Virus record (IMG/VR): IMGVR_UViG_2534682108_000014
Location: 1-14,290 of that record
Length of the DNA stretch: 14,290 nucleotides
Reading direction: 5' to 3' (one strand)
From: a virus
Lineage: Duplodnaviria; Heunggongvirae; Uroviricota; Caudoviricetes
The notes under the pieces are model-generated. The model saw nothing but the letters and a program-made list of their open reading frames with translations. It searched no databases and had not been told where the DNA came from. This document shows positions 1,557-14,290 of this stretch, piece after piece. Numbering within the stretch: position 1 is the first letter of the stretch; each line of letters opens with the position of its first letter. The position numbers were made by a program, and so were the translations under genes.

Positions 1557-1729
1557 TTCCTCGCACGATGTCTTAGCCACCGGATATCCCACAGGTGAGC
1601 CGTGTAGTTGAAGGTTTTTACGTCAGATTCTTTTGGGATTGGCTTGCGTTTATTTCTGGAGCGCTTCGTTGGAAGGTATTTGCAGTTTTCGCAGATGATG
1701 TCGGTGATACTTCGTCGCTGTCGTCTCAT
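1553..1729 (-). CDS. ninE: NinE protein (58 aa)
   Basis: From ATG at 1729: [58 protein letters not shown], matching my memory of lambda NinE. Start overlaps the ninB stop (ATGA). The track start at 1774 is an upstream extension inside ninB. Confidence 0.85.
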
Positions 1730-2136
1730 TCGTACCTCCTGTCGGTAAATCTGACACCCTGACCAATAGCCCATGCTGTCGTGTACTCAATCAGGCTTGC
1801 CATGCGCTTCACGCTCATCTGTGCGCTGCTTTCGCGAATGTTGACGTATTCACCTTCAAGGCCGGGCAAAACATCAGCTTCCTGTTTTGTTGCCACTGCA
1901 TGACCGCTAATTAACAAAACCTTCCATTGTTCCGGTTTTAACCATTTGCCGCACCATTGAACCTGACGAGCGATATCCGCCAGCATCGCGTGAAATTTTG
2001 CGTTCTGGTCAAGGTTGCGCTTGTAGTCAGTAATGCGGATGGTAACTGGCTTGTCTTTATCGAGTGGTGTTGCGAGGATGGCGTTGATTGCGGCTTGCTG
2101 TTGTTGTTTACCACGGAGGAAGATTGTTTGCTTCAT
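1726..2136 (-). CDS. ninB: NinB-family recombination protein (about 136 aa)
   Basis: Contains the NinB-like core ...[33 protein letters not shown]... ATG at 2136 is preceded by GAAGGAG with a 5-nt spacer. The track start at 2142 is a GTG two codons upstream. Confidence 0.75.
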
Positions 2137-2138
2137 CG

Positions 2139-2453
2139 TCACTCCTTCACTTTGACTCCAACGGCGCGGATGTTTTCCTCATAAGCATCCATTCCATCGC
2201 CGAAGCCATTGGAATAATCAACAGTAAACCCTTTGGCTAATGCTTCTCTGCTGTCGATAAACTTTGGCGCGGTTATTTCAATAGCTGATCGCGATGCCTG
2301 CCATAAAGTCCACCACTCATTTAAGGAGTGACGAATATCCATGCTTGAAAATGCGAAGTACCTATCACCATTTCTTGCCTCGGTTATCATCTCGAATGGT
2401 AATCTCAATTTTTTGGCAACGTATTCCTCAAACTGCTTTCTTGATTCGTCCAT
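2139..2453 (-). CDS. Hypothetical protein (104 aa)
   Basis: Intact ORF with ATG at 2453, RBS GAGGG upstream, stop 2 nt before the ninB start. Same strand and tight spacing as neighbours. No motif recognised. Confidence 0.6.
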   Translation of the reverse strand: MDESRKQFEEYVAKKLRLPFEMITEARNGDRYFAFSSMDIRHSLNEWWTLWQASRSAIEITAPKFIDSREALAKGFTVDYSNGFGDGMDAYEENIRAVGVKVKE

Positions 2454-2470
2454 CGATAATTACCCTCAGT

Positions 2471-2677
2471 TCAACTCACAAAACACCACGCCATTTTTGC
2501 TACAGCGACAGGCGCAACACCGATAATCACCCACATGAGAATGCTACCGAAAAGCACACCCGCCAGGTCTTTACCTTCGCCTACCAACCGGACAAAACAG
2601 ACAGCAACCACAATGAACGTCGCCACCATCCACAGAGCACCGAGAAGCCTCAATGCAGAGAAAATTAACTCAACCAC
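2471..2677 (-). CDS. Small hydrophobic protein, two predicted transmembrane helices (68 aa, GTG start)
   Basis: MVELIFSALRLLGALWMVATFIVVAVCFVRLVGEGKDLAGVLFGSILMWVIIGVAPVAVAKMAWCFVS has two about 20-residue hydrophobic stretches split by a GEGKD turn. GTG start preceded by GGGGGAGAG 6 nt upstream. Lies directly downstream of an intrinsic terminator. Confidence 0.55.
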   Translation of the reverse strand: MVELIFSALRLLGALWMVATFIVVAVCFVRLVGEGKDLAGVLFGSILMWVIIGVAPVAVAKMAWCFVS

Positions 2678-2692
2678 GATTTACTCTCCCCC

Positions 2693-2724
2693 AAATAAAA
2701 AGGCCTGCGATTACCAGCAGGCCT
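2693..2724 (-). terminator. Rho-independent terminator on the minus strand between the 89-aa gene and the small membrane-protein gene
   Basis: Minus-strand reading AGGCCTGC-TGGTAATC-GCAGGCCT followed by TTTTTATTT: 8-bp GC-rich stem, 8-nt loop, U-tract. The plus-strand reading lacks a downstream T-run. Confidence 0.6.
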
Positions 2725-2749
2725 GTTATTAACTCAGAGATGTAGATGG

Positions 2750-3019
2750 TCATTGCTTCATCTCCCTTTCCATTTCATCAATGTCAACGTCATCAGGAAG
2801 ATGGGAGCAATACGCCGCTATACCATGATGATTTATCTCATACCCTTTGAACGTTACCATCTGATGCGTAATCTCAACTTCGTTCAGGAATCCGCCATCG
2901 CATAACTGCCTGGCTATTTTCGATTTGGTCTGGATTATTGGTAGTGCCTGTTCTTTCAAAGCGTATGATATTTGTGCATCCCATGCCTTTTCGAGAATGG
3001 CTAATTGTTTTTTATTCAT
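2750..3019 (-). CDS. Hypothetical protein (89 aa)
   Basis: ATG at 3019 with strong RBS AAGGAGG 6 nt upstream. Start overlaps the helicase stop by 1 nt (TGATG). No family recognised. Confidence 0.6.
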   Translation of the reverse strand: MNKKQLAILEKAWDAQISYALKEQALPIIQTKSKIARQLCDGGFLNEVEITHQMVTFKGYEINHHGIAAYCSHLPDDVDIDEMEREMKQ

Positions 3020-4455
3020 CAGAATCCTCCTTTCTTCTTGGACTGCGGTTCCTCGCGTTCACGGCGGCGCATTTCAGCAGACTGTTGGTCTGTGTCATAA
3101 ATAGCGCCATTTGCCTGAATGCAATACACCGTGCCGGTATTGCCATGACGATTGAGGCGAAGGATTAGTTCGGTTTCACCAGGTGGAACACTGTCATCAA
3201 AAGCACCTTCACGATGGATCCCCACCCAATAATCGCAATCCTGTTCAATCTGCCCTGTATCTCGTGAGTCACTTGGTAATGGGCGTTTATTGGTTCGGCT
3301 TTCCAGTGCGCGGTTAAGCTGTGTCAGAAGCACAACAACGCAATCAAGCTCTTTGGCAAGGTTCTTCAGTCCTTTGGTGATCATGCCGTAAGCAAGGTCG
3401 TTGCGATCGGCCTTTTCAGCGGTCATTAGTGTCAGGTAATCGACCAGAATCATGCCAACACATCCTTTTTCTCGCTTGATTCGACGGCTTTCGCTGACGA
3501 TTTGAGCCAGAGATAATCCCGGCGTGTCGTCAATGTAAAGCAGGTCGATTTCACTCAAGCGATTGGCTGTTTCGATCGCCCTGTTGAAGTCACCATCGTA
3601 ATCACCCTGATAGCCGTCATCAGCGTCATTTGTCGCCGGAAGGTAAAAAATATTCGGGTTAACACCTGACTTCTGTCCTACCAGTTTTTCCAGTATCTGG
3701 TCACCGGGCATTTCAAGGCTGAACATCAGAGCGGGCTTTTTCTCATGCACTGCGCAGTTGATTGCCATCTGGCTGTATAGCGTCGTTTTCCCCATCTTAG
3801 GGCGAGCGCCAATGACAAACAGAGAGCCTTTCACCAGACCTTTCGGTGACAGCATCCTGTCCAGCGATGGGATCCCTGTGCTCATTCCTCGTTGTTCGCC
3901 TGACGGGTCAAATCGCTTCTCAAGGTCGCTAACCCAGTCTTCCATGACCTCACCAAATGAGCGAAGGCCGCGACGCGATCCGGTTTTTGCATGGTCTGTC
4001 AGTTGCGTGAAAATCGCCTGAATAGCTTCGTACTTCTGCGTTGCAGTCATTCCGTTGCGGGAATAGAGCAATTCCGTCGCTTCAGTCATGCGGTTGATGG
4101 CGTAGCGTTCCATTGCGGTTTCACGAACCTGCATTGCATAGGCAACGATGTTTGCTGCGCTTGGCGTGTTCTTTGCGATCTCAGCGATATAAGCAAAACC
4201 GCCAACAGACACCGTTAACGATTTACGCTCCAGTTCATCGAAAAGCGTCAGGCCATCTACTGGCTTTTGCTCACGGTGCATTCTGGTTATTTCTTCGAAA
4301 ATGATTTTGTGTGGTCGGCTGTAAAATGAATCAGGCTTCAGCATCGCCAGGACTTTCTGGACGCGCTCACTGCTGTCATCATCCAGAAGCAATCCACCAA
4401 TCACCGCCTGCTCTGCCTCGATGCTATGGGGCGGCGCATAAAAATTATCGGTCAT
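3019..4455 (-). CDS. Replicative DNA helicase, DnaB family (phage P22 gene 12-like), about 478 aa
   Basis: Walker A GARPKMGKTT, Walker B-like ILVDYLTLM, and DnaB-type N-terminal SIEAEQAVIGGLLLD. ATG at 4455 is preceded by GAGGGTG; the track start at 4470 is a GTG extension. Confidence 0.93.
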   Translation of the reverse strand: MTDNFYAPPHSIEAEQAVIGGLLLDDDSSERVQKVLAMLKPDSFYSRPHKIIFEEITRMHREQKPVDGLTLFDELERKSLTVSVGGFAYIAEIAKNTPSAANIVAYAMQVRETAMERYAINRMTEATELLYSRNGMTATQKYEAIQAIFTQLTDHAKTGSRRGLRSFGEVMEDWVSDLEKRFDPSGEQRGMSTGIPSLDRMLSPKGLVKGSLFVIGARPKMGKTTLYSQMAINCAVHEKKPALMFSLEMPGDQILEKLVGQKSGVNPNIFYLPATNDADDGYQGDYDGDFNRAIETANRLSEIDLLYIDDTPGLSLAQIVSESRRIKREKGCVGMILVDYLTLMTAEKADRNDLAYGMITKGLKNLAKELDCVVVLLTQLNRALESRTNKRPLPSDSRDTGQIEQDCDYWVGIHREGAFDDSVPPGETELILRLNRHGNTGTVYCIQANGAIYDTDQQSAEMRRREREEPQSKKKGGF

Positions 4456-5335
4456 CGTGTTCACCCTCACGAACTTTCAGGTAGGTATTATCGTTAAGCA
4501 GGAAATCAAATCCCTTTTTGTGCCAGACGGTTCCGCGTTGATGGTTTGGACGCTCTTCGAACATCCATCGGCAATTTTCGCCTACGTAGCTCAAATAATT
4601 TCTCCAGTCCTGCATCGTGAACCCATGCCCGTCAAGCTGGCGGGTTATCACTCCGGCTTTGCGCCAGAACGTTCGGATCTGGTTTTTACGCTTGTCATTC
4701 AGTGCGCGGATTTTTGGCGCTTCAGGAAGGATTTCGTGGTAAGCATCGACAACATCCTGACAGCTAACGGAAGGTTTTTTCTTGTCAGACTTTTTGTCTG
4801 CTGCGGTACTCTCTAATACGTCAGTATTAGAGATATTATTTATATTATTGTTTATGGACAACCGTTGGACAACCGTTGGACAATCTCCGCTGAGAGCCGC
4901 GCCATTACTGGTGTTTGCGTTGGGCAACCGTTGGACAACCGTTGGACAATTTTTTGCCTGAAAATCGTCATATTTAACGATTGTAAACAGGCTAAATTTC
5001 TTCCCCATCGAGCAAATATTAAGCATACCTTTCGACTCAAAAGTCCGTAATAAGCTCCGAACTTTGTTGTCGGGGATGAATGTTTCTCTGACCAGCGACG
5101 GGCGTCCAGTTATCATCTGACCGCGATCAACAGTTATCGGCCCGATATCCGTATTGACGACAGTAGATTCGTGATTAGCCTTGAGGATTAAGTGAAGCCA
5201 AAGATGTACTGCCTGAGAGTCCTTATAGAGCCTGCTGTCCATAAACTGGCGGTGTATAGAGACATACCCCATACTGGATGCCTCCTGATGTTGTACAGGG
5301 TTATGCCTGTAATCAGCTAACTTAACGACGCCCAT
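4445..5335 (-). CDS. Replication initiation protein, lambda O-like (P22 gene 18-like), 296 aa, containing the origin
   Basis: Sits immediately upstream of the DnaB-type helicase; RBS AGGAGTG before ATG 5335. The coding sequence carries ori-type iterons, translated as the repeated peptide CPTVVQRL. Family assignment is by organisation plus recollection of O/gp18 proteins. Confidence 0.85.
   Translation of the reverse strand: MGVVKLADYRHNPVQHQEASSMGYVSIHRQFMDSRLYKDSQAVHLWLHLILKANHESTVVNTDIGPITVDRGQMITGRPSLVRETFIPDNKVRSLLRTFESKGMLNICSMGKKFSLFTIVKYDDFQAKNCPTVVQRLPNANTSNGAALSGDCPTVVQRLSINNNINNISNTDVLESTAADKKSDKKKPSVSCQDVVDAYHEILPEAPKIRALNDKRKNQIRTFWRKAGVITRQLDGHGFTMQDWRNYLSYVGENCRWMFEERPNHQRGTVWHKKGFDFLLNDNTYLKVREGEHDDR
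4815..4950. repeat. Replication origin: AT-rich tract (4815-4852) plus six approximately 11-bp iterons GGACAACCGTT in two clusters (4855-4887 and 4922-4950) inside the O-like gene
   Basis: Direct reading: ggacaaccgtt ggacaaccgtt ggacaatctcc, a 34-bp spacer, then gggcaaccgtt ggacaaccgtt ggacaattttt. Adjacent attagagatattatttatattattgtttat is AT-rich. Layout (iterons then AT-rich, in the O reading direction) mirrors lambda ori. Confidence 0.8.
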
Positions 5336-5483
5336 GTTTCACTCCTGCTTTGGCTAGTCTGTAAACACCAACAAGGCGCTCTGCGAACGCCCTGTTATTT
5401 GCTGCGGCTACCACTAATCCCTCAGGTGAATCAGGGTGTCGAATCTCTTCTTTTTCCTGGTATTTCTTACGACGTTTTGTCAT
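5322..5483 (-). CDS. Small basic hypothetical protein (53 aa) between the cII-like and O-like genes
   Basis: ATG at 5483 with RBS AGGAG 6 nt upstream; translates MTKRRKKYQEKEEIRHPDSPEGLVVAAANNRAFAERLVGVYRLAKAGVKHGRR. Its stop overlaps the O-like start. Below the ORF-track size cutoff, so a manual call. Confidence 0.4.
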   Translation of the reverse strand: MTKRRKKYQEKEEIRHPDSPEGLVVAAANNRAFAERLVGVYRLAKAGVKHGRR

Positions 5484-5517
5484 AATTACTCCTGTGGATT
5501 GATCCAGTCTTTCTACA

Positions 5518-5796
5518 TCAGGCCTCGAAGAATTCGCCGTTCTTCGGGGCTTTTTCTTTTGTCAGCATTCTGGCTACTTTCTTAGCCAGTTCCGCCAACT
5601 CCTCGTCTTCAACACCCCATTCAAGAACAGCCAGAAGCATGGCCATCTTTGGGATAAAGCTGTCTTTCCATCGCGAAATTTGCGATTCATTAATCCCTAA
5701 CGCGTCGGCAACCTTTCGCTGACCACGTACAGCAATTCGATTCAGGATGTTGCTTGTAATTGCATTCGCTTTCTTGCGAGTACTTGTAAGTTCCAT
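5518..5796 (-). CDS. c1: CII-family transcriptional activator (P22 C1-like), 92 aa
   Basis: From ATG 5796: MELTSTRKK...GINESQISRWKDSFIPKMAMLLAVLEWGVEDEEL, carrying the conserved CII core SQISRWK...IPK...MLLAVLEWGV. RBS AAGGAAA 7 nt upstream. The track start at 5883 is an upstream extension across the cro-cII spacer. Confidence 0.85.
   Translation of the reverse strand: MELTSTRKKANAITSNILNRIAVRGQRKVADALGINESQISRWKDSFIPKMAMLLAVLEWGVEDEELAELAKKVARMLTKEKAPKNGEFFEA
5522..5560 (+). terminator. Rho-independent terminator on the plus strand, antisense to the 3' end of the cII-like gene (candidate terminator of an OOP-like antisense RNA)
   Basis: GCCTCGAAGAA-TTCGCCG-TTCTTCGGGGC followed by TTTTTCTTTT: 11-bp stem with one mismatch, then a U-tract, on the plus strand only. 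Position is analogous to lambda terminator to. Confidence 0.5.
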
Positions 5797-5810
5797 ATGT
5801 AAGTATTTCC
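5774..5810 (+). promoter_or_regulatory. Candidate PRE (CII-activated establishment promoter) pointing toward cro/c2
   Basis: TTGC-gagtac-TTGT on the plus strand at 5774-5787 matches the TTGC-N6-TTGC CII/C1 site with one mismatch. It lies inside the first codons of the cII-like gene in the opposite orientation, as lambda pRE does. The -10 is weak, as expected for an activator-dependent promoter. Confidence 0.4.
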
Positions 5811-5829
5811 TTAACAAATAAGAAGTTAT

Positions 5830-5847
5830 GCGCATCAACTTATGCGC
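5830..5847 (-). other. Hairpin between nutR and the cII-like gene (possible tR1-like pause/termination element)
   Basis: GCGCAT-caactt-ATGCGC is a 6-bp inverted repeat with a 6-nt loop, followed on the minus strand by a U-rich but interrupted tract. Position matches lambda tR1; the structure alone is weak evidence. Confidence 0.3.
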
Positions 5848-5855
5848 GTTGTATT

Positions 5856-5898
5856 CCCGCATTTCGGCGGGAATGAGGACCATGACTGTTAAAGAGCA
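5856..5898 (-). promoter_or_regulatory. nutR: boxA (5887-5898) plus boxB hairpin (5856-5871) just downstream of cro
   Basis: Minus-strand reading TGCTCTTTAACA (boxA, same core as the E. coli rrn boxA), a 15-nt spacer, then CCCGCCGAAATGCGGG (5-bp stem, GAAA-containing loop). The same boxA core and an identical boxB recur downstream of PL. Confidence 0.65.
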
Positions 5899-5904
5899 AT
5901 TTGC

Positions 5905-6090
5905 TTATGCCGCTTTGCGGTAAGCGCTTTCTTGATACTTCAGGGCGCCAGCTGTAACGACTTCCAGTCGATAGGCGTCTTTCTCTGGGATGACTTCCTT
6001 CCACTGAGAGACTGCTGCGTCGCTAATGCCTAACGCTTTAGCTACAGCACGCTGGGTTCCGAAGTGGTCGATAACATCTTTCTTGTACAT
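5905..6090 (-). CDS. cro: Cro repressor, P22-type (61 aa)
   Basis: MYKKDVIDHFGTQRAVAKALGISDAAVSQWKEVIPEKDAYRLEVVTAGALKYQESAYRKAA matches P22 Cro almost residue for residue as I recall it; HTH QRAVAKALGISDAAVSQW. Divergent from the repressor gene across the operator region. Confidence 0.93.
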   Translation of the reverse strand: MYKKDVIDHFGTQRAVAKALGISDAAVSQWKEVIPEKDAYRLEVVTAGALKYQESAYRKAA

Positions 6091-6104
6091 AGACTCGCTC
6101 CGAA

Positions 6105-6170
6105 ATTAAAGAACACTTAAATTATCCACTAAAGGAATCTTAAGTCAAGTTTATTTAAGATGTCTTAACT
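6105..6170. promoter_or_regulatory. OR region: three 18-bp P22-type operators (6105-6122, 6128-6145, 6153-6170) with PR (minus strand, toward cro) and PRM (plus strand, toward c2)
   Basis: All three sites fit ANTNAAG-N4-CTTNANT: ATTAAAGaacaCTTAAAT, ACTAAAGgaatCTTAAGT, ATTTAAGatgtCTTAACT. Minus-strand PR reads -35 TTGACT (6143-6148) and -10 GATAAT (6121-6126) with 16-bp spacing. The third operator abuts the c2 ATG, implying a short or leaderless PRM transcript. Confidence 0.75.
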
Positions 6171-6821
6171 ATGAAAACTCAATTGATGGGAGAGCGCATT
6201 CGCGCTCGGAGAAAAGAACTCAAGATCAGGCAGGCCGCACTTGGAAAGATGGTCGGCGTGTCTAATGTTGCCATATCTCAGTGGGAACGCTCTGAGACAG
6301 AGCCAAATGGAGAGAATCTTCTCGCCCTGGCTAATGCGTTGAAGTGTTCCCCTGACTATCTGATGAAAGGAGAGGAAAGTCTTTCAAACATTGCCTATCA
6401 CAGTAGGCATGATCCAAGAGGGTCATACCCTCTGATTAGCTGGGTGAGCGCAGGATGCTGGATGGAAGCTGTAGAACCATATCATAAGCGTGCAATAGAT
6501 AACTGGTACGATACAACCGTAGACTGTTCAGAAGATTCGTTTTGGTTGGACGTGAAGGGAGACTCAATGACGGCTCCGGCCGGTCTCAGTATCCCTGAAG
6601 GAATGATAATACTCGTCGATCCTGAAGTAGAGCCGCGTAACGGGAAACTGGTAGTTGCAAAGCTCGAAGGAGAAAACGAGGCAACTTTCAAGAAGTTAGT
6701 TATTGATGCAGGCAGGAAGTTTCTAAAACCACTTAACCCACAATATCCGATGATCGAGATCAACGGAAACTGCAAAATCATCGGCGTAGTTGTCGATGCA
6801 AAACTAGCAAACCTTCCATAA
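6171..6821 (+). CDS. c2: Prophage repressor, P22 C2-type (216 aa), LexA-like autocleavable
   Basis: MKTQLMGERIRARRKELKIRQAALGKMVGVSNVAISQWERSETEPNGENLLALANAL... matches P22 C2 near-identically from memory and has the same length. N-terminal HTH, Ala-Gly cleavage region, and C-terminal S24-type GDSM serine with a downstream lysine. Confidence 0.96.
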   Translation: MKTQLMGERIRARRKELKIRQAALGKMVGVSNVAISQWERSETEPNGENLLALANALKCSPDYLMKGEESLSNIAYHSRHDPRGSYPLISWVSAGCWMEAVEPYHKRAIDNWYDTTVDCSEDSFWLDVKGDSMTAPAGLSIPEGMIILVDPEVEPRNGKLVVAKLEGENEATFKKLVIDAGRKFLKPLNPQYPMIEINGNCKIIGVVVDAKLANLP

Positions 6822-6846
6822 GGGGGCATTCGCCCCTTTTTTTTAT
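6822..6846 (+). terminator. Rho-independent terminator downstream of c2
   Basis: GGGGC-ATTC-GCCCC followed by TTTTTTTT, starting 1 nt after the c2 stop codon. Confidence 0.8.
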
Positions 6847-6887
6847 TTCCTTTAAAAATCAAAGCCAAACTTAAGTTACGAAAGAAA

Positions 6888-6940
6888 ATTTAAGTTTTCT
6901 TCAAAAATACTCTTGACCATTAATTAAAGAGATCTTAAAT
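6888..6940. promoter_or_regulatory. OL/PL region: P22-type operator at 6923-6940, weaker site at 6888-6905, and PL promoter (plus strand)
   Basis: ATTAAAGagatCTTAAAT (6923-6940) is a perfect fit to the operator pattern; ATTTAAGttttCTTCAAA (6888-6905) has one mismatch. PL reads -35 TTGACC (6913-6918) and -10 TTAAAT (6935-6940) with 16-bp spacing, the -10 lying inside the operator. Confidence 0.65.
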
Positions 6941-6986
6941 TTAAGCCATCAGCAGGACGCTGGTAGCCAAACGGAACAGATTGGCA

Positions 6987-7027
6987 GGCTCTTTAACATT
7001 GATGGGATTGTCCCGCCGAAATGCGGG
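6987..7027 (+). promoter_or_regulatory. nutL: boxA (6987-6998) plus boxB hairpin (7012-7027) in the PL leader
   Basis: GGCTCTTTAACA, a 13-nt spacer, then CCCGCCGAAATGCGGG. The boxB is identical to the nutR one on the other strand, and the boxA core GCTCTTTAACA is shared. Confidence 0.62.
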
Positions 7028-7339
7028 AACCAAAGAGTAGTTGGCTTTGGGGTGACGTGAAGTGCAGCTGCACGACGGCAACCGGAAGATAAGCACCCGG
7101 CGCGTCACCGCCAAAGTCAATTCCATAGGCGAAATGCAGCCGCCAAACACAGCCAATGCTGCACATGCAACAGGAGGATTTATGTGAATGCATAACTTCA
7201 AAACCGAGGTTAATTAAATCTCTCGATCCGAGCATTGACCTATTAGGTGGCGAGATGCTCTTTCTGCCCCTCAGTTCGAGGGGCCAGAAACCACTTTGCA
7301 ATCACTATCAATTCCAAAGTTGTTTCATCGGAGGTCAAC

Positions 7340-7612
7340 ATGACAGTAGTCATTACATATCTGGCTGACGATAACGCCAGAAATCGCCGCAGAGCACGCA
7401 GACAGGCTCAACGTGAACAGGCAATGCAAGAGCAGCGACTGACGCGAAAAATTGCGCTAAAGCTCTCTGGTTGCGTCAGAGCAGATAAAGCAGCATCACT
7501 CGGAAGCCTTCGCTGTAAGGAAGAAGATGAACGCAGTGGAAGTATTTGCCTGCCAAACGTAGCCATTTACGCGGCAGGATACCGGAAATCAAAACAACTG
7601 ACGGCGAGGTAA
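7340..7612 (+). CDS. 24: N-like transcription antiterminator (P22 gene 24-like), 90 aa
   Basis: From ATG 7340 (RBS GGAGG): MTVVITYLADDNARNRRRARRQAQREQ... with an N-terminal arginine-rich motif, and a C-terminus LPNVAIYAAGYRKSKQLTAR resembling P22 gp24 as I recall it. Lies downstream of PL/nutL. The track start at 7247 is an upstream extension. Confidence 0.85.
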   Translation: MTVVITYLADDNARNRRRARRQAQREQAMQEQRLTRKIALKLSGCVRADKAASLGSLRCKEEDERSGSICLPNVAIYAAGYRKSKQLTAR

Positions 7613-7615
7613 GTG

Positions 7616-7840
7616 ATGAATCAGACATACATTCCATCATGCTTGAGAAATCTGCCAAAGCAGAAAGCAAAGCCCCGCAAGCAAGCCATAAAGGACGCTA
7701 AGGCAGAGGTTATTGATCAAGCAATACAATTGCTCAGGGAGGAGTTAAGAAGTGGCAAGCTCGAAGGAATGATGATGCCATATCAGCGCGGATATCTATC
7801 GGCGATTAGTAAGTTGGAAGTATTGAAGAGTGAATTATGA
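7616..7840 (+). CDS. Hypothetical protein (74 aa), lysine-rich N-terminus
   Basis: ATG at 7616 begins 4 nt after the N stop, with GAGG 7 nt upstream. Same strand as the PL operon. No family recognised. Confidence 0.55.
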   Translation: MNQTYIPSCLRNLPKQKAKPRKQAIKDAKAEVIDQAIQLLREELRSGKLEGMMMPYQRGYLSAISKLEVLKSEL

Positions 7841-7902
7841 ACTATCTGGAATTTCCGGATGGTTCATTGTTTTGGCAGCAAACCACTTATTTGAGGTGAT
7901 AT

Positions 7903-8154
7903 ATGGAATTTCATGAAAGTGCGATTTGTGATTTTCGCGCTAACGCAAATTCAGTAAAACAACAGCCAATTGCAGTTCTTTTTAAAACAATGGGTGCGTG
8001 GGCTGTTTTATGCTTCGCCGCTGACGACACTGACGCAAGAATGGCAATAGGCCAAGAGATGGAGATGGATCCGACAAACGATGAATTCATAATTTATGGC
8101 GCTCCATCTAATTACTTACTTGATACCTGCAACATTTACAACAAGGCTGCCTGA
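7903..8154 (+). CDS. Hypothetical protein (83 aa)
   Basis: ATG at 7903 preceded by GAGGTGATAT. Acidic, cysteine-containing, no recognisable motif. Confidence 0.55.
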   Translation: MEFHESAICDFRANANSVKQQPIAVLFKTMGAWAVLCFAADDTDARMAIGQEMEMDPTNDEFIIYGAPSNYLLDTCNIYNKAA

Positions 8155-8213
8155 TGGTGGTCTTTATTTTTTAGCCGTAAATAATTTCATGCTTATTACA
8201 ATCAAGGTGATAT

Positions 8214-8579
8214 ATGGAAGAACAAGCAAACAAGATTCTCGTAGAACTACTGCAAAAAGCCAGCAATGGAATAGACGCGGCTGTTTCATTTAGCCAGGCA
8301 CAGATTCCTGATGTCATCCATCAGCTTTTGATGTGGCACGCCGTATCATCAGCTGGAATTCAGGCTATCTGTGTATTGGTGATTATAGCGTGTGTTTATC
8401 TGATGATTTTTGCATGGAATAAAGGAGATGATGCAGATATTGTTCTTTCATCACTACTTGTCACATCAGGAATAGCGATTACTTCTATTGTTGTTTTCTT
8501 CAATTATTTCGACTGGCTGAAAATTTGGCTTGCTCCAAAACTTTACCTTATCGAATATGCAGCATCATTGGTTAAGTAA
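8214..8579 (+). CDS. Hypothetical membrane protein (121 aa) with two predicted transmembrane helices
   Basis: ATG at 8214 preceded by AAGGTGATAT. Hydrophobic segments AGIQAICVLVIIACVYLMIFAW and LLVTSGIAITSIVVFFNYF follow an amphipathic N-terminal region. Confidence 0.6.
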   Translation: MEEQANKILVELLQKASNGIDAAVSFSQAQIPDVIHQLLMWHAVSSAGIQAICVLVIIACVYLMIFAWNKGDDADIVLSSLLVTSGIAITSIVVFFNYFDWLKIWLAPKLYLIEYAASLVK

Positions 8580-8638
8580 TTTCAGGACGCATAGTCGGCC
8601 TTTATTTTTGGCACAAACAACAGAATAAACACTGCACT

Positions 8639-8666
8639 GTGTATTCATTCCAACGAGTGAATACAC
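8639..8666 (+). other. Long hairpin / inverted repeat (12-bp arms, 4-nt loop) in the intergenic region upstream of the c3-like gene
   Basis: GTGTATTCATTC-caac-GAGTGAATACAC gives 12 pairs counting one G-U in RNA (one mismatch as DNA). No U-tract follows, so it is not an intrinsic terminator. Confidence 0.5.
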
Positions 8667-8728
8667 GGAGCAATGTCGCTCGTAACTAAACAGGAGCCGA
8701 CTTGTTCTGATTATTGGAAATCTTCTTT

Positions 8729-8754
8729 GCCCTCCAGTGTGAGGGCCTTTTTAT
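8729..8754 (+). terminator. Rho-independent terminator within the PL operon, upstream of the c3-like gene
   Basis: GCCCTC-cagtgt-GAGGGC followed by CTTTTTTAT on the plus strand. Confidence 0.6.
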
Positions 8755-8818
8755 ATGCATACCAATAACGCTTCACTCGAGGCGTTTTCGTTATGCAATC
8801 AAATATAAGGAGTTACCC

Positions 8819-8953
8819 ATGATGCACTTTCAGTTCGCGGGTAGCGGCGTCATGTCCGCTTTCTACCCGCACGAATCTGAATTATCACGCCGAGTTAAAC
8901 AATTAATAAGAGCAGCAAAGAAACAACTGGAGGCGTTATGCGCAATGAAATAG
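8819..8953 (+). CDS. c3: CIII-like small protein (44 aa), putative FtsH-inhibitor that would stabilise CII
   Basis: From ATG 8819 (RBS AAGGAG, 5-nt spacer): MMHFQFAGSGVMSAFYPHESELSRRVKQLIRAAKKQLEALCAMK. This shares the lambda CIII pattern AG..V...P.ES.L.R...L.....K.L as I recall it. The track ORF starting at 8714 spans the terminator and is rejected. Confidence 0.5.
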   Translation: MMHFQFAGSGVMSAFYPHESELSRRVKQLIRAAKKQLEALCAMK

Positions 8954-9090
8954 CCATCAATCACCAGATGCTTCGTGCGGCACAAAACAAAGCAGTAATA
9001 GCCAGATTTATTGGTGATTCCAAAATGTGGCTTGAAGCAAATAAAGCGATGAAATCAGCTATCAACCTTCCGTGGTATCGCAGGAAATGA
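8938..9090 (+). CDS. Small hypothetical protein (50 aa), in the kil/arf position of P22-like phages
   Basis: ATG 8938 with GGAGG 4 nt upstream, overlapping the c3-like 3' end. Translates MRNEIAINHQMLRAAQNKAVIARFIGDSKMWLEANKAMKSAINLPWYRRK. Below the ORF-track cutoff; positional inference only. Confidence 0.4.
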   Translation: MRNEIAINHQMLRAAQNKAVIARFIGDSKMWLEANKAMKSAINLPWYRRK

Positions 9091-9245
9091 GTTTTACAGA
9101 TAACTGGTCAGACGAAGAATTCATTCGTCAGATGAAAGAATTAATCGGTAACGAAGGAGATATTCATGTCACTTGCAACCACAGTGAAGGAGAGCAAGTT
9201 ACAGAGACGCATGTACACGCAGAAAGCTCTCTGGTATCGCCATAA
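9087..9245 (+). CDS. Small acidic hypothetical protein (52 aa)
   Basis: ATG 9087 overlaps the preceding stop (ATGA), suggesting coupling; the RBS is poor. Translates MSFTDNWSDEEFIRQMKELIGNEGDIHVTCNHSEGEQVTETHVHAESSLVSP. Confidence 0.35.
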   Translation: MSFTDNWSDEEFIRQMKELIGNEGDIHVTCNHSEGEQVTETHVHAESSLVSP

Positions 9246-9346
9246 TGGCGACCGCGAAGGAATGCGGGTATGCCTTAATTTGTCCCGAGTCGAAGTATTA
9301 AATCAGCGTTATTTCCTTGGGCCTTGTCCATTCTGAGAACAAACAT

Positions 9347-9952
9347 ATGAGCAAAGAATTTTACGCAAGACTGGCTGCTATTCAGGAGAATCTGAACGCG
9401 CCAAAAAATCAGTACAACTCATTCGGCAAATATAAATACAGAAGCTGCGAAGATATTCTTGAAGGCGTTAAGCCGTTACTGAATGGTCTGTTTTTATCAA
9501 TCAGCGATGAAGTTGTGTTGATTGGTGATCGGTATTACGTGAAAGCCACGGCAACTATTACCGATGGCGAAAACAGTCATACGGCAACCGCTCTTGCACG
9601 AGAGGAAGAAAGCAAGAAAGGAATGGATTCTGCACAAGTTACGGGAGCCACAAGCTCTTATGCACGCAAGTATTGCCTCAATGGTTTGTTCGGCATTGAT
9701 GATGCGAAAGATGCAGATACCGACGAGCATAAACATCAGCAGAACGCAGCAGCAAAGCAATCAAAACCATCACCTACACCTGAACAGGTTCTAAAAGCAT
9801 TCACTGACGCAGCATTGCAGAAAAACACCGTGGAAGAGCTTAAACAGGCGTTCGCCAAAGCGTGGAAGATGCTCGAAGGCACACCGGAGCAGCACAAAGC
9901 GCAGGACGTTTACAACATCAGACGAGACGAATTAGAAGGAGCTGCTGCTTAA
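9347..9952 (+). CDS. erf: Erf, essential recombination function protein (single-strand annealing protein), 201 aa
   Basis: From ATG 9347: MSKEFYARLAAIQENLNAPKNQYNSFGKYKYRSCEDILEGVKPLLNGLFLSISDEVVLIGDRYYVKATATITDGENSH... matches P22 Erf closely from memory. The track start at 9317 is a TTG extension. Confidence 0.9.
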   Translation: MSKEFYARLAAIQENLNAPKNQYNSFGKYKYRSCEDILEGVKPLLNGLFLSISDEVVLIGDRYYVKATATITDGENSHTATALAREEESKKGMDSAQVTGATSSYARKYCLNGLFGIDDAKDADTDEHKHQQNAAAKQSKPSPTPEQVLKAFTDAALQKNTVEELKQAFAKAWKMLEGTPEQHKAQDVYNIRRDELEGAAA

Positions 9953-10335
9953 TGGCACATTCGATTACTGTAAGACTAAACAAGCCCGCAAGAGAGTTTC
10001 AGGCCGGGGAAAATATCGGATTCAACATCCGTGCTGGCGTTCAGTATTACGATCGCCAGACAAAAAAGAAAGAATGGACAAACTACAGCGCCGTTGTATT
10101 TGCCAAGCCTGGAGCGCAAGCTGATTACTACCGTAGTGTTCTTGTTGAAGGTGGCATTGTAGAAATTACCGGAGAAAACATCAGGGTTGATGTTTATCAG
10201 GGGCAAAATGGTCAATCAATCACTCTTGAATTACTGAATGCAAAGATTGGATTTGCAACTTCAGGAAACAGCCAACAGCAGCAAAGTAGCAATCATCAAA
10301 ATCATCCTGAATACGACGATTCAATTCCCTTCTAA
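9952..10335 (+). CDS. Single-stranded DNA-binding protein-like (short SSB with acidic C-terminal tail), 127 aa
   Basis: ATG 9952 overlaps the erf stop (TAATG). The C-terminus ...QQQQSSNHQNHPEYDDSIPF resembles the SSB signature tail DDDIPF after a Q-rich linker, and the N-terminal region has an SSB-like pattern (W.NYSAVVFAK ... VEGG.VEITG). The track start at 9862 lies inside erf. Confidence 0.6.
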   Translation: MAHSITVRLNKPAREFQAGENIGFNIRAGVQYYDRQTKKKEWTNYSAVVFAKPGAQADYYRSVLVEGGIVEITGENIRVDVYQGQNGQSITLELLNAKIGFATSGNSQQQQSSNHQNHPEYDDSIPF

Positions 10336-10358
10336 AGTAGCAACATAAGGATTCCATT

Positions 10359-10652
10359 ATGCCAGCGCCTCTGTATGGTGCGGATGACCCGCGCCGCTGT
10401 TCCGGCAATTCCGTATCGGAGGTGCTGGATAAATTCAGAAAAAACTACGACCGGATAATGTCTCTACCGCAGGAAACGAAAGAGGAAAAGGAATTTCGCC
10501 ACTGTATATGGCTTGCAGAGAAAGAAGAACGCGAGCGAATTTACCAGACATCAATCCGCCCATTCCGCAAAGCCACATATACCCACTTCCCTGAAATTGA
10601 CCCGCGCCTGCGTAATTACCGCTCACGCTATGGCGCTATCAGTAATGACTGA
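10359..10652 (+). CDS. Hypothetical protein (97 aa); by position could be an anti-RecBCD abc-type gene, but not recognised
   Basis: ATG 10359 with AAGGA 7 nt upstream. No motif recognised; the functional guess is positional only (downstream of erf). Confidence 0.55.
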
Positions 10653-10662
10653 GGAATTTACC

Positions 10663-10827
10663 ATGAGAGGACTTGCATACAATCCCGGCATTCTTCCGGC
10701 AGAAATGATTATTCGACAACGCGTAAAGCCAATGCCATCGAGAGAGGAATTGCTTAAGAGAAAGAGTTTCGGTTCTGTTAATGACAACAAATATCTGAAT
10801 GCGATGTGGCGGAGTGGGAAGAAATGA
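10663..10827 (+). CDS. Small hypothetical protein (54 aa)
   Basis: ATG 10663 with GAGGAA 7 nt upstream: [54 protein letters not shown]. The track ORF starting at 10513 is a long upstream extension overlapping the previous gene in another frame. Confidence 0.45.
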
Positions 10828-11216
10828 AACAAATGACACTAATTGAGATGGATGGATTTCTGAAAGGTAAATGCATTCCACGAGATTTAAAGGTTAACGA
10901 AACAAACGCTGAATATCTGGTGCGTAAATTTGCTGAAGCGGAGGCCAAGTGCGCGGCGCTGGCTGCGGAGAATGCGGCGCTGAAGAAGTTCTGCAAAGAC
11001 GCTGCATTCGATGCCGATTACGAAGCAGAGCTAGGTATGGAGCGTGGTGGATTCAGTGATGCACTTAACGATATCGAAACCACAGCCACCGACGCTTTCT
11101 TGGCTGAAGTACGGGCGCAGGGCGTGGAGATGTTTGCTGACCATCTGTTGTGCCCAAACCTTGATGACACTATCCGTGACTTTGCTGCCCAGCTTCGCAA
11201 AGGAGTGCAGTCATGA
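10824..11216 (+). CDS. Hypothetical protein (130 aa), alanine-rich helical segment
   Basis: ATG 10824 overlaps the upstream stop (ATGA). Contains [20 protein letters not shown], suggestive of a helical or coiled-coil segment. Confidence 0.55.
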
Positions 11217-11575
11217 AAAGAGAGCCGAAAAAAACTGTGAAGATTAAGCGTTTCCGCTACTCACTTGATTGGTTCACCGTTGATGACGTTGAGTGCGAAG
11301 TCGGCAATGGATTCAGCTACGAAATGCAGTTTCGTCTCGGGGCATGGTATCTGATGGGGAAATATTACGATTACAAGGCTGAGCAGTGGTACGAGGATTA
11401 TAGAAAATCATTCCAGCTGGAATGCCCAGCGGAAGCCGTTATTGCTCTTGGTAATAGCCTGACGAAGTTCAGCAGACTTCACGACTGTGACCACCTGACT
11501 GAACACCTCGCTAAACTGCTGAAAGGCGTTGCTTCGCGCATTGCTATTAGTGAAGCAGAAGGAGGCAACCAGTGA
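11213..11575 (+). CDS. Hypothetical protein (120 aa)
   Basis: ATG 11213 overlaps the upstream stop (ATGA), with AAAGGAG 7 nt upstream. No motif recognised. Confidence 0.6.
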   Translation: MKREPKKTVKIKRFRYSLDWFTVDDVECEVGNGFSYEMQFRLGAWYLMGKYYDYKAEQWYEDYRKSFQLECPAEAVIALGNSLTKFSRLHDCDHLTEHLAKLLKGVASRIAISEAEGGNQ

Positions 11576-12180
11576 GCAAGATTGATTATCAAAAGCTTCG
11601 TGAAATCGCTGAAAAAACAAAAATTGCTGGTGAAGCACCTGTAATGCCTTTCGATCAGCGAATTAATGCGCTTAACGATTTTATGAAGCACTTTTCGCCA
11701 GATATCGCGCTGGCATTGTTGGATGAACGGGAAAGAAACCAGCAATACATCAAATCCCGCGACCAGGAGAACGAGGATATTGCGCTAACGGTAGGGAAGC
11801 TGCGCGTTGAGCTGGAAGGCAAAGACAGCAAAATAGCCAATCTTACCGCCGAACGCGATGCTCTTCGTGAAGGTGAGATGGGCGACGCTAGGCATAGCAA
11901 CACACGGGCCGCAGCTGATATCTACTTCCAACTGGTCGAGGAGTGCGAAATTCCTGCTGGCGGTTCTCTGGTCGAGTACGTTGACGATATGCGCGAGAAG
12001 CTGGAAGCCGCAGAGAAGCGCATTGCAGAACTGGAAGCGCGGGAAATACTGCTCCCGGAACGTAGCAGCATGCTTCATCGAACAGATTTTCACGATGATT
12101 ACCAAACGGTAATGGCATACAAAGTTTCTGAGGTCATCGATGCAATCCGCGCCGCTGGCATTCGCATCAAAGGAGAGTGA
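11572..12180 (+). CDS. Hypothetical coiled-coil protein (202 aa), ea-region type
   Basis: GTG 11572 overlaps the upstream stop (GTGA), preceded by strong GAAGGAGG. Central heptad-like region KLRVELEGKDSKIANLTAERDALREGE ... LEAAEKRIAELEARE. Confidence 0.6.
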   Translation: MSKIDYQKLREIAEKTKIAGEAPVMPFDQRINALNDFMKHFSPDIALALLDERERNQQYIKSRDQENEDIALTVGKLRVELEGKDSKIANLTAERDALREGEMGDARHSNTRAAADIYFQLVEECEIPAGGSLVEYVDDMREKLEAAEKRIAELEAREILLPERSSMLHRTDFHDDYQTVMAYKVSEVIDAIRAAGIRIKGE

Positions 12181-12181
12181 G

Positions 12182-12373
12182 ATGAATGGACAAATATCAA
12201 TTGTTCGACCTGGAGCATGTGACGATTGCGAGATACGAATGATTATTCGTCTGGCAATGGGGAAAACAATAACTGCTCTCATTACTCCAGAAAATCTCGC
12301 ATTGGCATTAACCGGAAAGTCAGACCTGCCAGTAGAGCTAAAGCTGCGAAATGTTGAGATTAAGGTGAAATAG
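12182..12373 (+). CDS. Small hypothetical protein (63 aa)
   Basis: ATG 12182 sits 1 nt after the upstream stop, with AAGGAGAG upstream: MNGQISIVRPGACDDCEIRMIIRLAMGK... The track start at 12140 lies inside the previous gene. Confidence 0.5.
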   Translation: MNGQISIVRPGACDDCEIRMIIRLAMGKTITALITPENLALALTGKSDLPVELKLRNVEIKVK

Positions 12374-12374
12374 C

Positions 12375-12971
12375 ATGAATTCTATTACCAAAGAACGTAT
12401 TGAATTGTTCATTAAAGATCCGCTTGAAAACGGGCTTACTCGTGGCGAACAAATGGAACTGGCACGAATTGCACTGGCATCACTGGAACGCGAACAGATT
12501 CGCCACGAGCATGCCAAATGGTCTGACTCCACATTTGGCTGCGTTGGCCCCATTGGTCCGCTGAAACATCTCTCAAAAGAGGCTCTGGAAGCCGCAGCCG
12601 AACCAGACGATCTTAGCGAGTGGGCTGATATGCAGTTTCTGTTGTGGGATGCACAGCGCCGTGCTGGCATCAGCGATGCTGAAATTACCGCTGCTATGGA
12701 AGATAAATTGAAGATCAACATGGAGCGCCAGTGGCCTGAGCCAAAAGATGGTGAGCCTCGCTTGCACATTAAAGAACCCGGCAACTATCCGGCAACTCCG
12801 GATGGTTGGGTTATGGTGCCGAAGGAGTTAACCCCGGAAATGATGAGAGCCGTTCAGATTAGAAGTGAGCTTGGAGGGTATGCCACTTCCAATCTATCTG
12901 GTGCATACAATATGTTTTCTGAGTTCTGGAATGTTGCTGTCTCAGCTGCGCCTAAGGTGGATGATTTATGA
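12375..12971 (+). CDS. Hypothetical protein (198 aa)
   Basis: ATG 12375 sits 1 nt after the upstream stop, with AAGGTGA 6 nt upstream. No motif recognised. Confidence 0.6.
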   Translation: MNSITKERIELFIKDPLENGLTRGEQMELARIALASLEREQIRHEHAKWSDSTFGCVGPIGPLKHLSKEALEAAAEPDDLSEWADMQFLLWDAQRRAGISDAEITAAMEDKLKINMERQWPEPKDGEPRLHIKEPGNYPATPDGWVMVPKELTPEMMRAVQIRSELGGYATSNLSGAYNMFSEFWNVAVSAAPKVDDL

Positions 12972-13270
12972 ATCTATATCGCTGCCCATTCTGTGGTTCC
13001 ACTGTGCTTAACATCGGATACTCATTCAATATCAGAGGGAAAATGCGCTATGTGTCATGCAAATGTGGTGCCCAAGGACCAGAAAAACGAACTAAATCTG
13101 AAGCGATTTCTTCATGGAATAGTCGAATGAAAGTATGGGTTTATGATCCAGAAACCATATTAAACGCTGAAGAGCGCAGGAGAACGGAAGTCTATATTCA
13201 TAACCTTAATGAAGATGGATTTACACCAGTGCTTGTAAAGGCTACTCCGCAGGAGGTTAACCATGGCTAA
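12968..13270 (+). CDS. Lar-family restriction alleviation protein-like (100 aa; Lar-like N-terminal zinc-ribbon domain plus C-terminal extension)
   Basis: N-terminus MNLYRCPFCGSTVL...YVSCKCGAQGP...SEAISSWNSR shows the CPFCG...C.CG...A...WN.R pattern I associate with the Lar (Rac prophage) family. ATG overlaps the upstream stop (ATGA); RBS AAGGTGG. Confidence 0.6.
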   Translation: MNLYRCPFCGSTVLNIGYSFNIRGKMRYVSCKCGAQGPEKRTKSEAISSWNSRMKVWVYDPETILNAEERRRTEVYIHNLNEDGFTPVLVKATPQEVNHG

Positions 13271-13547
13271 CCTACAACTTGCCGTCAAAGGTGAATACTT
13301 CGATGCCATGATTCGCAGAGAGAAAACGGAAGAGTATCGCCTGTGTAATGACTATTGGAATAAGCGCCTCGTTAACCGTAAGTATGACCGCCTGATTATC
13401 ACAAAGGGATATCCGAAGCGCGACGACTTCAGTCGCAGAATTGATGTTCCGTATGACGGATATGAAATCAAGACAATCACACATCCCCACTTCGGCGATA
13501 AACCGGTAAAGGTGTTCGCGATAAAGGTGAATATCGGCAATGAATAA
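13263..13547 (+). CDS. ASCH/PUA-like domain protein (94 aa), tentative
   Basis: N-terminus LQLAVKGEYFDAMIRREKTEEYR resembles the ASCH-domain opening pattern (I.KPEYFD.I..G.KT.E.R). ATG 13263 preceded by AGGAGG. Confidence 0.45.
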   Translation: MANLQLAVKGEYFDAMIRREKTEEYRLCNDYWNKRLVNRKYDRLIITKGYPKRDDFSRRIDVPYDGYEIKTITHPHFGDKPVKVFAIKVNIGNE

Positions 13548-13551
13548 CAAT

Positions 13552-13578
13552 CCTCGCACTCGCGGGGATTTCTTTTAT
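13552..13578 (+). terminator. Possible weak intrinsic terminator after the ASCH-like gene
   Basis: CCTCGC-actc-GCGGGG (6-bp stem including one G-U) followed by the U-rich ATTTCTTTTAT. Confidence 0.3.
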
Positions 13579-13619
13579 CTGAACTCGCTACGGCGGGTTT
13601 TGTTTTATGGAGACAAGAA

Positions 13620-13964
13620 ATGTCAGATTTGGCTATGAAGGTTTTGAAATGGCAATCGACTGGCGATGTCGGCATCAGTAGCGCAACTCTTGCCTCAATC
13701 GCATGTGGACTGAAAAAGAATATCTATGGTCATAGCTTCGGTGCTCCACATGACGCAGCCGATTTCAGACGATGCGTTGCACTTGTTGAGCAGATTCCAG
13801 AAATCAGAGATTCATTCGACAAGGTTGCAAAGCGCGTTCCGGCATTCAAAGGAATCCTCAACGAATGGGATTCACTCGTTGCTCTGTTGAAGTCTGAAAT
13901 GAAGATACACGGAAACAAAGCACCAGAGACTTACAGAAGAATTAGCGAGTTACGCAAGGACTAA
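13620..13964 (+). CDS. Hypothetical protein (114 aa)
   Basis: ATG 13620 with GGAGA 6 nt upstream; intact ORF on the operon strand. No motif recognised. Confidence 0.6.
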   Translation: MSDLAMKVLKWQSTGDVGISSATLASIACGLKKNIYGHSFGAPHDAADFRRCVALVEQIPEIRDSFDKVAKRVPAFKGILNEWDSLVALLKSEMKIHGNKAPETYRRISELRKD

Positions 13965-14023
13965 CCACAGCCTCACACTCGATGAGGCCAGTTCATTTCT
14001 CAAGATATCCAGACCTACCATCG

Positions 14024-14047
14024 CCGCATCAATGCGGTTTTTTTATT
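14024..14047 (+). terminator. Rho-independent terminator upstream of the xis-like gene
   Basis: CCGCA-tcaa-TGCGG (5-bp stem, tetraloop) followed by a run of nine T. Confidence 0.45.
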
Positions 14048-14089
14048 GCCTGATTTGCAGGTTCGATTCCCTATTCGGAGATAGCACTC

Positions 14090-14290
14090 ATGCAACACGA
14101 ACTACAGCCTGATTCACTGGTTGATTTGAAATTCATCATGGCCGATACTGGCTTCGGTAAAACCTTCATCTATGACCGGATTAAGTCCGGGGACCTGCCT
14201 AAAGCCAAAGTTATCCACGGGCGAGCAAGATGGTTATATCGTGACCATTGTGAATTCAAAAATAAGCTCTTAAGCCGCGCCAATGGGTAA
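14090..14290 (+). CDS. AlpA/Xis-family small DNA-binding protein (putative excisionase), 66 aa
   Basis: LVDLKFIMADTGFGKTFIYDRIKSGDLPKAKVIHGRARWLYRDHCEF fits the AlpA/excisionase pattern (helix-turn-helix then conserved R.W). Sits at the distal end of the PL operon, where xis-int are expected. Stop codon is the last triplet of the window. Confidence 0.6.
   Translation: MQHELQPDSLVDLKFIMADTGFGKTFIYDRIKSGDLPKAKVIHGRARWLYRDHCEFKNKLLSRANG

Follow-up and report, generated by a model that had tools for sequence, protein, structure and literature searches.

SieB of phages P22 and lambda (PF14163) is a membrane protein whose hydrophobic helices are N-terminal. Its gene lies in the slot between the N-type antiterminator gene and cIII, and a promoter of its own drives expression in the lysogen. 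Imm of phage T4 is a small early, non-essential protein of the inner membrane that blocks DNA entry. Another described system is gp62 of phage N4, a non-essential lysis regulator with two transmembrane (TM) domains, which are its conserved part, and with both termini in the cytoplasm (PMC12642591). Here we describe three open reading frames (ORF1-3) in the N-to-cIII slot of a lambdoid phage of the class Caudoviricetes, at positions 7616-8579 of a stretch of 14,290 nucleotides (nt) (IMG/VR record IMGVR_UViG_2534682108_000014, positions 1 to 14,290; the whole stretch is called the window below). The original prediction, made from the letters alone, regarded them as an uncharacterised cassette and as a candidate exclusion or defence module. 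Our analysis makes a different organisation, together with the assignment of the three genes to families, highly probable. Tentatively, we read the region as three separate optional delayed-early genes, the third of which may act in the lytic cycle at the inner membrane.

The three ORFs and the two conserved genes that enclose them are:
7340-7612, + strand, N-type antiterminator gene, 90 amino acids (aa) from ATG 7340, with an arginine-rich motif (PF25694, E 2.6e-15; PHROG 271)
7616-7840, + strand, ORF1, 74 aa (75 aa from GTG 7613), PHROG 5305 (E 4.8e-38, residues 2-75)
7903-8154, + strand, ORF2, 83 aa, PHROG 2471 (E 2e-60, residues 1-83)
8214-8579, + strand, ORF3, 121 aa, PHROG 3054 (E 4.2e-47, residues 1-121)
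8819-8953, + strand, cIII, 44 aa, in the downstream conserved flank (PF08134, E 5.9e-29)

ORF1 starts 3 nt past the stop codon of the N gene, and each of the three ORFs is preceded by a Shine-Dalgarno-like GAGG/AGGT 6-8 nt upstream of its start; no competing ORF with support was found on the minus strand of 7616-8579. Homologues of full length and 58-70% identity are present in Citrobacter, Enterobacter, Klebsiella, Leclercia and other genera. The variation among relatives corresponds to a nonsynonymous/synonymous ratio of ~0.32 for ORF1 and ~0.20 for ORF2, i.e., to purifying selection. The original call of three ORFs of 74, 83 and 121 aa between the two flanking genes is thus confirmed by the Pfam matches of these flanks, by the ribosome-binding sites and by selection. 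It is true that the ORFs are short, lower in G+C (0.39-0.43) and frequently missing in relatives, and that one relative has an internal stop. However, the conservation of full-length proteins across genera, the purifying selection, the good ribosome-binding sites and the full-length PHROG matches contradict chance reading frames, and it is extremely improbable that ORF1-3 are such frames or decaying remnants without function. Related phages and E. coli genomes already have entries, labelled hypothetical, for proteins 98-100% identical to ORF1-3. Note that in the deposited annotation of phage HK633 (NC_019719) gp43 is an ORF2 extended to 129 aa, and gp42 comprises no more than the C-terminal 58 aa of ORF3; tblastn reveals in this phage an intact 121-aa ORF3, 99% identical to that of the window.

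By family, the three proteins appear to belong only to PHROGs 5305, 2471 and 3054. Searches of ORF1-3 against Pfam and NCBIfam gave only scattered chance matches, and Pfam found no consistent family among 50 ORF3 relatives. No significant defence model was matched in PADLOC-DB v2 (best E 0.016-0.025, on short or hydrophobic stretches), and sequence and profile searches of the PDB gave nothing below E 0.04. With Foldseek, the ORF3 model had no match in the PDB and only two in BFVD, both uncharacterised phage proteins and apparently family members. The profile searches and structure prediction proposed with the original prediction therefore yielded PHROG matches but no characterised homologue, in agreement with its view that the three proteins are uncharacterised. 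LysZ was also considered as a relative and rejected, being an unrelated protein of an actinobacterial phage.

ORF1 is basic (isoelectric point 9.7), with a K/R-rich N-terminus followed by conserved segments, and its gene follows N, of which at least two sequence types are involved, wherever N was recognised (with a gap of ~3-6 nt in the loci checked). ORF2 is acidic (isoelectric point 4.2), has a conserved hydrophobic core and is predicted to be an alpha/beta protein; its AlphaFold2 model (predicted local distance difference test score, pLDDT, 54) is unreliable and too poor for structure comparison. With 19 clusters at 90% identity, the ORF2 family is a small one; it was found only in Enterobacteriaceae, where it is carried by O157:H7 prophages, among others. 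ORF1 and ORF2 thus appear to be narrow-range cytoplasmic accessory proteins of Enterobacteriaceae phages.

The gene neighbourhoods of 80 viral loci per anchor gene (ORF1, ORF2 or ORF3) follow a fixed order: N, ORF1, ORF2, ORF3 family, DUF2528/ral/322-aa coiled-coil protein, cIII, kil. Each element in this order is optional. ORF1 is followed by ORF2 in 11 of the 80 ORF1-anchored loci and occurs without it in the other 69; similarly, an ORF3-family gene comes after ORF2 in 10 of the 80 ORF2-anchored loci and is missing in 70. The complete trio was found in none of the 160 loci anchored on ORF1 or ORF2, and among the ORF3-anchored loci only in the E. coli record L001. Our survey of complete E. 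coli genomes (n=5,426) revealed ORF1 in 145, ORF2 in 400 and the 121-aa allele of ORF3 in 43 of them (~180 further genomes match the ORF3 ends only), and all three genes in this order in a single one, APEC_AN-25. Members of a co-inherited cassette should be found together more often than not, and these genes are not. The region 7616-8579 is a case of classical lambdoid mosaicism with ordered optional slots. The comparison of the slot across related phages, which the original prediction had called for, supports a fixed order but not joint inheritance, and the independent assortment contradicts its three-gene cassette of swapped cargo.

The junctions between the genes are consistent with this picture. 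The short linkers before ORF2 (7865-7905) and before ORF3 (8135-8213) both end with AGGTGATATATG and are common to 53 and ~33 loci, respectively, with differing flanking genes; they look like mosaic recombination junctions. The mosaic unit of ORF3 begins ~10 nt upstream of its ATG, and therefore no promoter travels with the gene. In phage ECP1 (L005, 2079-2409), the first 87 nt of ORF2 are followed by the 3' noncoding stretch of ORF3 and then by ral, which, judging from this arrangement, is a deletion scar left by the loss of the rest of ORF2 and of all of ORF3. The locus of E. coli FDAARGOS_946 (L126) has an internal stop in its ORF3-family gene and a frameshifted ral; it also carries a HicA toxin gene and a DUF1902 gene between the repressor gene and N.

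For the expression of ORF1-3, the following elements are relevant:
6913-6941, + strand, pL-like sigma-70 promoter, TTGACC / 17 nt / TAAATT (promoter scan), downstream of the cI-like repressor gene and its terminator
6988-7027, + strand, nutL, boxA-like GCTCTTTAAC and boxB hairpin TCCCGCCGAAATGCGGGA (sequence match)
7832-7872, + strand, strong hairpin overlapping the ORF1 stop, then UUGUUUUGG (-19.9 kcal/mol, z -5.0); terminator-like, in a tL1-like position
8143-8172, + strand, terminator-like hairpin and T-run at the end of ORF2 (-11.2 kcal/mol)
8580-8754, + strand, noncoding stretch travelling with ORF3-family genes; degenerate terminator just past the stop, 14-bp hairpin 8637-8668, intrinsic terminator 8729-8752
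8767-8792, + strand, second terminator-like hairpin upstream of cIII
8938-9090, + strand, kil (Kil PF06301), in the downstream conserved flank

As expected for members of an early-left (pL) operon, ORF1-3 lie on the pL strand, after nutL and N and before cIII, kil and the recombination genes, and are accompanied by terminators; the placement of pL, nutL and N puts the region 7616-8579 inside this N-dependent operon. In the consensus scan of positions 6700-9090, nothing on the + strand but pL resembled a promoter; the scan detected no promoter inside 7616-8579 and none near ORF3, though it could miss a weak one. Morons of the Hendrix type carry a promoter and a terminator of their own and are expressed from the prophage. 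ORF1-3 do have their own terminators: a terminator-like hairpin follows each ORF, and the terminator cluster 8580-8754 moves with ORF3. This 175-nt stretch is 95-99% identical in at least 46 loci, independently of the ORF3 allele or of the next gene, and folds strongly (-58.6 kcal/mol, z -4.7). RNAalifold found no covariation in it, the sequences being too similar, and Rfam gave no match at the gathering threshold or at E<=1. Candidate roles for the stretch are those of a tL2-like terminator cluster, of an RNase III site or of an RNA derived from a 3' untranslated region.

From this layout we infer that ORF1-3 are delayed-early, N-dependent genes that are silent in the lysogen. Transcription would start at pL and take up N at nutL, the N-modified transcription would read through the terminator-like hairpins after ORF1, ORF2 and ORF3, and the three proteins would be made after induction or infection. 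With pL and nutL upstream, terminator-like hairpins in between and no internal promoter found, expression in the repressed lysogen is not expected.

The two hydrophobic helices that had been noticed in the 121-aa protein were recovered both in the Kyte-Doolittle profile (residues ~49-67 and 76-94) and in the structure predicted by AlphaFold2 (mean pLDDT 81), which is a helical hairpin with helices at residues 2-70, 74-97 and 101-120. ORF3 consists of three parts:
8214-8342, + strand, residues 1-43, conserved N-terminal segment, GID.AV.FSQAQIPDV..QLL.W
8343-8507, + strand, residues 44-98, hypervariable TM1 (~49-67), short loop and TM2 (~76-94); the 121-aa allele of the exchangeable middle
8508-8579, + strand, residues 99-121 and stop, conserved C-terminal segment F.DWLKIWLAPKLYLIEYAASLVK

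Nearly all invariant positions of the family are located in the first ~43 and the last ~22 residues, G19, D21, P32, W41, W101, K103, P108, K109 and Y115 among them, and in these conserved ends the codon analysis gave a nonsynonymous/synonymous rate ratio (omega) of 0.03-0.16. The TM1-loop-TM2 part is variable in sequence, and the loop may have as few as ~8 or more than 60 residues. A comparison of the E. coli alleles of 121, 140 and 149 aa gave nucleotide identities of 86-90% for the ends (synonymous divergence, dS, ~0.5) and of 36-42% for the middles, which are effectively unrelated. In another locus (L027), the same middle is combined with diverged ends, with a dS of 0.26 for the middle and 1.5 for the ends. 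The middle has therefore been exchanged by recombination independently of the ends, and ORF3 is a two-helix membrane protein whose termini are conserved and whose middle can be exchanged. In members with a short loop, the number of K and R residues is 5.6 in the tails and 1.5 in the loop, which favours an orientation with both termini inside for these members. In relatives with a long loop (e.g., P0065, P0090, P0181, P0241, P0295), the loop ends, immediately ahead of TM2, in a common motif (F/W)x(F/W/Y)Dx(D/E/N)GD; in the window ORF3, the short loop WNKGDDADI resembles a reduced form of it.

At 90% identity, the ORF3 family forms 575 clusters. Among 1.84 billion representatives at 50% identity, a profile search detected 4,666 members at E<=1e-3 and 1,955 at E<=1e-10; all 50 diverse relatives that were scanned match PHROG 3054. 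Hosts include Enterobacterales, Pseudomonas, Alcaligenaceae and Alteromonadales. One homologue is labelled 'Gene 34 protein' by its source, and since the notes in the HK633 record assign Sf6 genes 32 and 33 to the positions of cIII and of the coiled-coil protein, this is probably gene 34 of Sf6; the copy in phage HF4s is named 'TM helix-containing protein'. In the 80 ORF3-anchored viral loci, which are mostly from E. coli and Salmonella phages, the gene has the orientation of pL and precedes cIII/kil/erf wherever these are recognisable; in most cases it comes after an N gene. Other arrangements were found among 26 distant genome loci. In eight of them (Pantoea, Buttiauxella, Dryocola, Proteus, two loci of Yersinia, Providencia, Xenorhabdus), the ORF3-family gene is directly downstream of an Rz-like spanin gene in a holin-endolysin-spanin cassette, before terminase. 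In most of these eight loci the gap to the spanin gene is 0-8 nt or the stop and start overlap, and separate holin genes (Phage_holin_8, _3_7, _3_2) are present upstream in the post-spanin loci. Further distant loci have the gene after NinG/Rap or a Holliday-junction resolvase. Furthermore, the family is present in virulent phages, i.e., in N4-like Ithacavirus (early region; Salmonella), in Justusliebigvirus coliphages of ~145 kb and related Klebsiella phages, and in many lytic Vibrio phages, where it adjoins DUF2800-family genes. In Pseudomonas lundensis (L105, 5000-5497), a 165-aa homologue stands alone and antisense between terminase- and portal-like ORFs (called from ORF size and N-terminal sequence, not from annotation); this placement is moron-like, unlike the enterobacterial ones.

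As the ORF3 family occurs in virulent phages and is co-transcribed in some cases with early genes, in other cases with late lysis genes, a role in the lytic cycle is the simplest one, and with such a role protection of the lysogen is unlikely to be the core function of the family. On our preferred reading, ORF3 would then be a non-essential inner-membrane modulator of lysis or of the envelope, affecting e.g. holin timing or membrane integrity. The ~43 N-terminal and ~22 C-terminal residues would be its likely working surfaces, probably at the cytoplasmic face, and the TM1-loop-TM2 middle would be an exchangeable anchor or specificity cassette. The recurrent tight coupling of the family to Rz speaks for this, as does the likeness in architecture to the equally non-essential N4 gp62, with its two TM helices and cytoplasmic termini. 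We regard such a mechanism, acting through the conserved terminal helices, as possible but rather doubtful, and several points weigh against it. In E. coli, Salmonella and virulent phages, ORF3 is located in early regions, well away from the lysis genes. The position downstream of Rz is itself known to carry accessory genes, and the adjacency to spanin genes may be merely positional. Holin and antiholin partners usually interact via their TM domains, and it is in these domains that the ORF3 family is conserved least. No homology was found to Pfam holin families or to N4 gp62 (hhalign of the ORF3 profile, probability 0.1%). The charge distribution becomes ambiguous with the long-loop members, which have a basic cluster just after TM1. 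A candidate weak promoter, TTAGCC / 17 nt / TATTAC, can be read by eye upstream of ORF3 (~8168-8196). Finally, no functional data for PHROGs 5305, 2471 and 3054 were found in the literature or in annotations.

Instead, ORF3 could be a membrane effector of superinfection exclusion or abortive infection, which would block DNA entry like T4 Imm or depolarise the membrane, with the TM-loop-TM part as the product of an arms race. A small protein with two TM helices would fit such a function, and the slot indeed holds sieB and ral in relatives, as had been expected for a site of exclusion and anti-restriction genes. The hypervariable middle and external loop, with discrete alleles shuffled by recombination, are consistent with it as well, and so is early expression from pL, which suits exclusion during lytic growth (as for T4 Imm); PADLOC reports a weak, non-significant match of ORF3 to the '2TM effector' model (E 0.025). 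However, ORF3 has no promoter of its own that we could find and is placed behind terminators in a repressed operon, so that it is unlikely to protect the lysogen. Its conserved parts are the termini and not the exposed loop, family members co-transcribed with late lysis genes would act too late, and the family is spread over phages with very different entry routes. ORF3 co-occurs with sieB and does not replace it, and it is not recognisably a SieB protein: PF14163 matched neither ORF3 nor any of the 50 relatives (positive control, SieB of Salmonella phage SPN9CC, E 7e-28), and hhalign of the ORF3 profile with SieB gave a probability of 0.1%. We consider this explanation rather unlikely. The phage T1 cor gene was considered as a precedent for an exclusion gene beside a lysis cassette and dropped, as the published account puts it after the tail-fibre genes. 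The original idea of an exclusion or defence module is accordingly not supported, though not refuted, by the terminators, the lack of a detectable internal promoter and the presence of the ORF3 family in lysis cassettes and virulent phages; a defence role expressed in the lysogen is unlikely for the region.

Less probable again, and in our view unlikely, is a function in host takeover or counter-defence, with ORF1, ORF2 or both inhibiting a host restriction or defence protein and the ORF3 termini binding a conserved inner-membrane protein of the host or a membrane-bound defence effector. The pL operon houses ral, gam, abc2, kil and cIII in lambdoid phages, and all of these but gam were found in the window or in related loci. 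The small acidic protein ORF2 is encoded in a slot where its gene alternates with ral and DUF2528. A conserved host target would agree with the conservation of the ORF3 termini, which extends from gamma- to betaproteobacterial hosts, and the family is present in virulent phages. Yet ORF1-3 have no similarity to known anti-restriction or anti-defence families, and with an ORF2 model too poor to compare, the argument is one of position and composition. A broader conception, rather unlikely on present evidence, is that PHROG 3054 is a pan-proteobacterial inner-membrane factor of an undescribed kind, in which conserved ends serve a conserved partner and a swappable TM-loop-TM cassette determines specificity; it would act in lytic-phase superinfection exclusion or in a general control of lysis or membrane integrity, in temperate and virulent phages alike. 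The window ORF3 would then be nothing more than one of its alleles.

The window is the immunity and early region of a lambdoid prophage, a lambda/P22-like mosaic, with the orientation of the lambda map reversed. Besides the genes listed above, the following features were identified:
5856-5897, - strand, nutR, boxA GCTCTTTAAC and boxB TCCCGCCGAAATGCGGGA identical to nutL, just downstream of cro
6171-6821, + strand, cI-like S24 repressor gene, upstream of pL
6820-6839, + strand, strong terminator at the end of the repressor gene
9317-9952, Erf gene, after kil

The cro and cII genes are on the minus strand. The sites at 6988-7027 and 5856-5897, which we take to be boxA/boxB elements from the established knowledge of lambda nut sites, are identical and flank the immunity region on both sides; the combined element has two matches in the window and none in 200 shuffles. 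Note that nutR is inside the 5' part of a long 'cII' ORF of 121 aa (5518-5883, minus strand), and cII therefore probably starts at an internal ATG of this ORF. Between kil and erf there is a 57-aa ORF (9072-9245, + strand), which matches PHROG 2123 (labelled 'recombinase') and, weakly, the family of the Erf cofactor Arf; it is probably an Arf-like recombination accessory gene.

For the window itself, the result is mostly deflationary: the region represents ordinary lambdoid mosaicism. The ORF3 family is of wider interest. With more than 4,600 clusters at 50% identity, it has members in E. coli prophages as well as in virulent phages of the N4-like and Vibrio groups, and it has neither a Pfam entry nor a published function that we could find. 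Its combination of conserved ends with an exchangeable membrane-spanning middle is an unusual pattern. Being small, easily cloned and widespread, ORF3 is a good target in the search for a missing lysis or envelope function or for a general exclusion mechanism.

How does the locus compare with the described systems? Ral, DUF2528 and the phi80 Agt-like 322-aa coiled-coil protein are optional products of the pL operon, encoded in the same ordered slots as ORF1 and ORF2; in Pfam, PHROG and NCBIfam scans, no named family, that of Ral included, was similar in sequence to ORF1 or ORF2. SieB shares the slot with ORF3 and its gene adjoins an ORF3 homologue in Salmonella phage SPN9CC and in other loci. 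However, SieB is larger (~183-192 aa versus 121 aa) and in SPN9CC is encoded antisense to pL, whereas ORF3 is on the pL strand and, unlike SieB, has no detected promoter. T4 Imm and ORF3 are both small, non-essential accessory proteins of the phage inner membrane for which early lytic expression is expected. ORF3 differs from Imm in its conserved ~43 N-terminal and ~22 C-terminal residues and in the occurrence of its family in late lysis cassettes as well; a search of Pfam-A, which should include an Imm_superinfect-type profile, gave no family at E<=0.1 for ORF3 and none consistently at E<=0.01 for the 50 relatives, without a positive control for that profile. N4 gp62 and class II holins or pinholins are similar to ORF3 in having, by prediction, two TM helices with the tails on one side, but gp62 is conserved in its TM domains and ORF3 is variable there. 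The likeness to holins extends to the placement of distant relatives in lysis cassettes, whereas the window ORF3 belongs to the early-left operon and is not beside an endolysin gene; in N4-like Salmonella phages, too, the ORF3 homologue is in the early region. While a member of none of these groups, ORF3 would in working terms be most similar to small accessory proteins of the phage inner membrane such as T4 Imm, N4 gp62 and those of the pinholin type.

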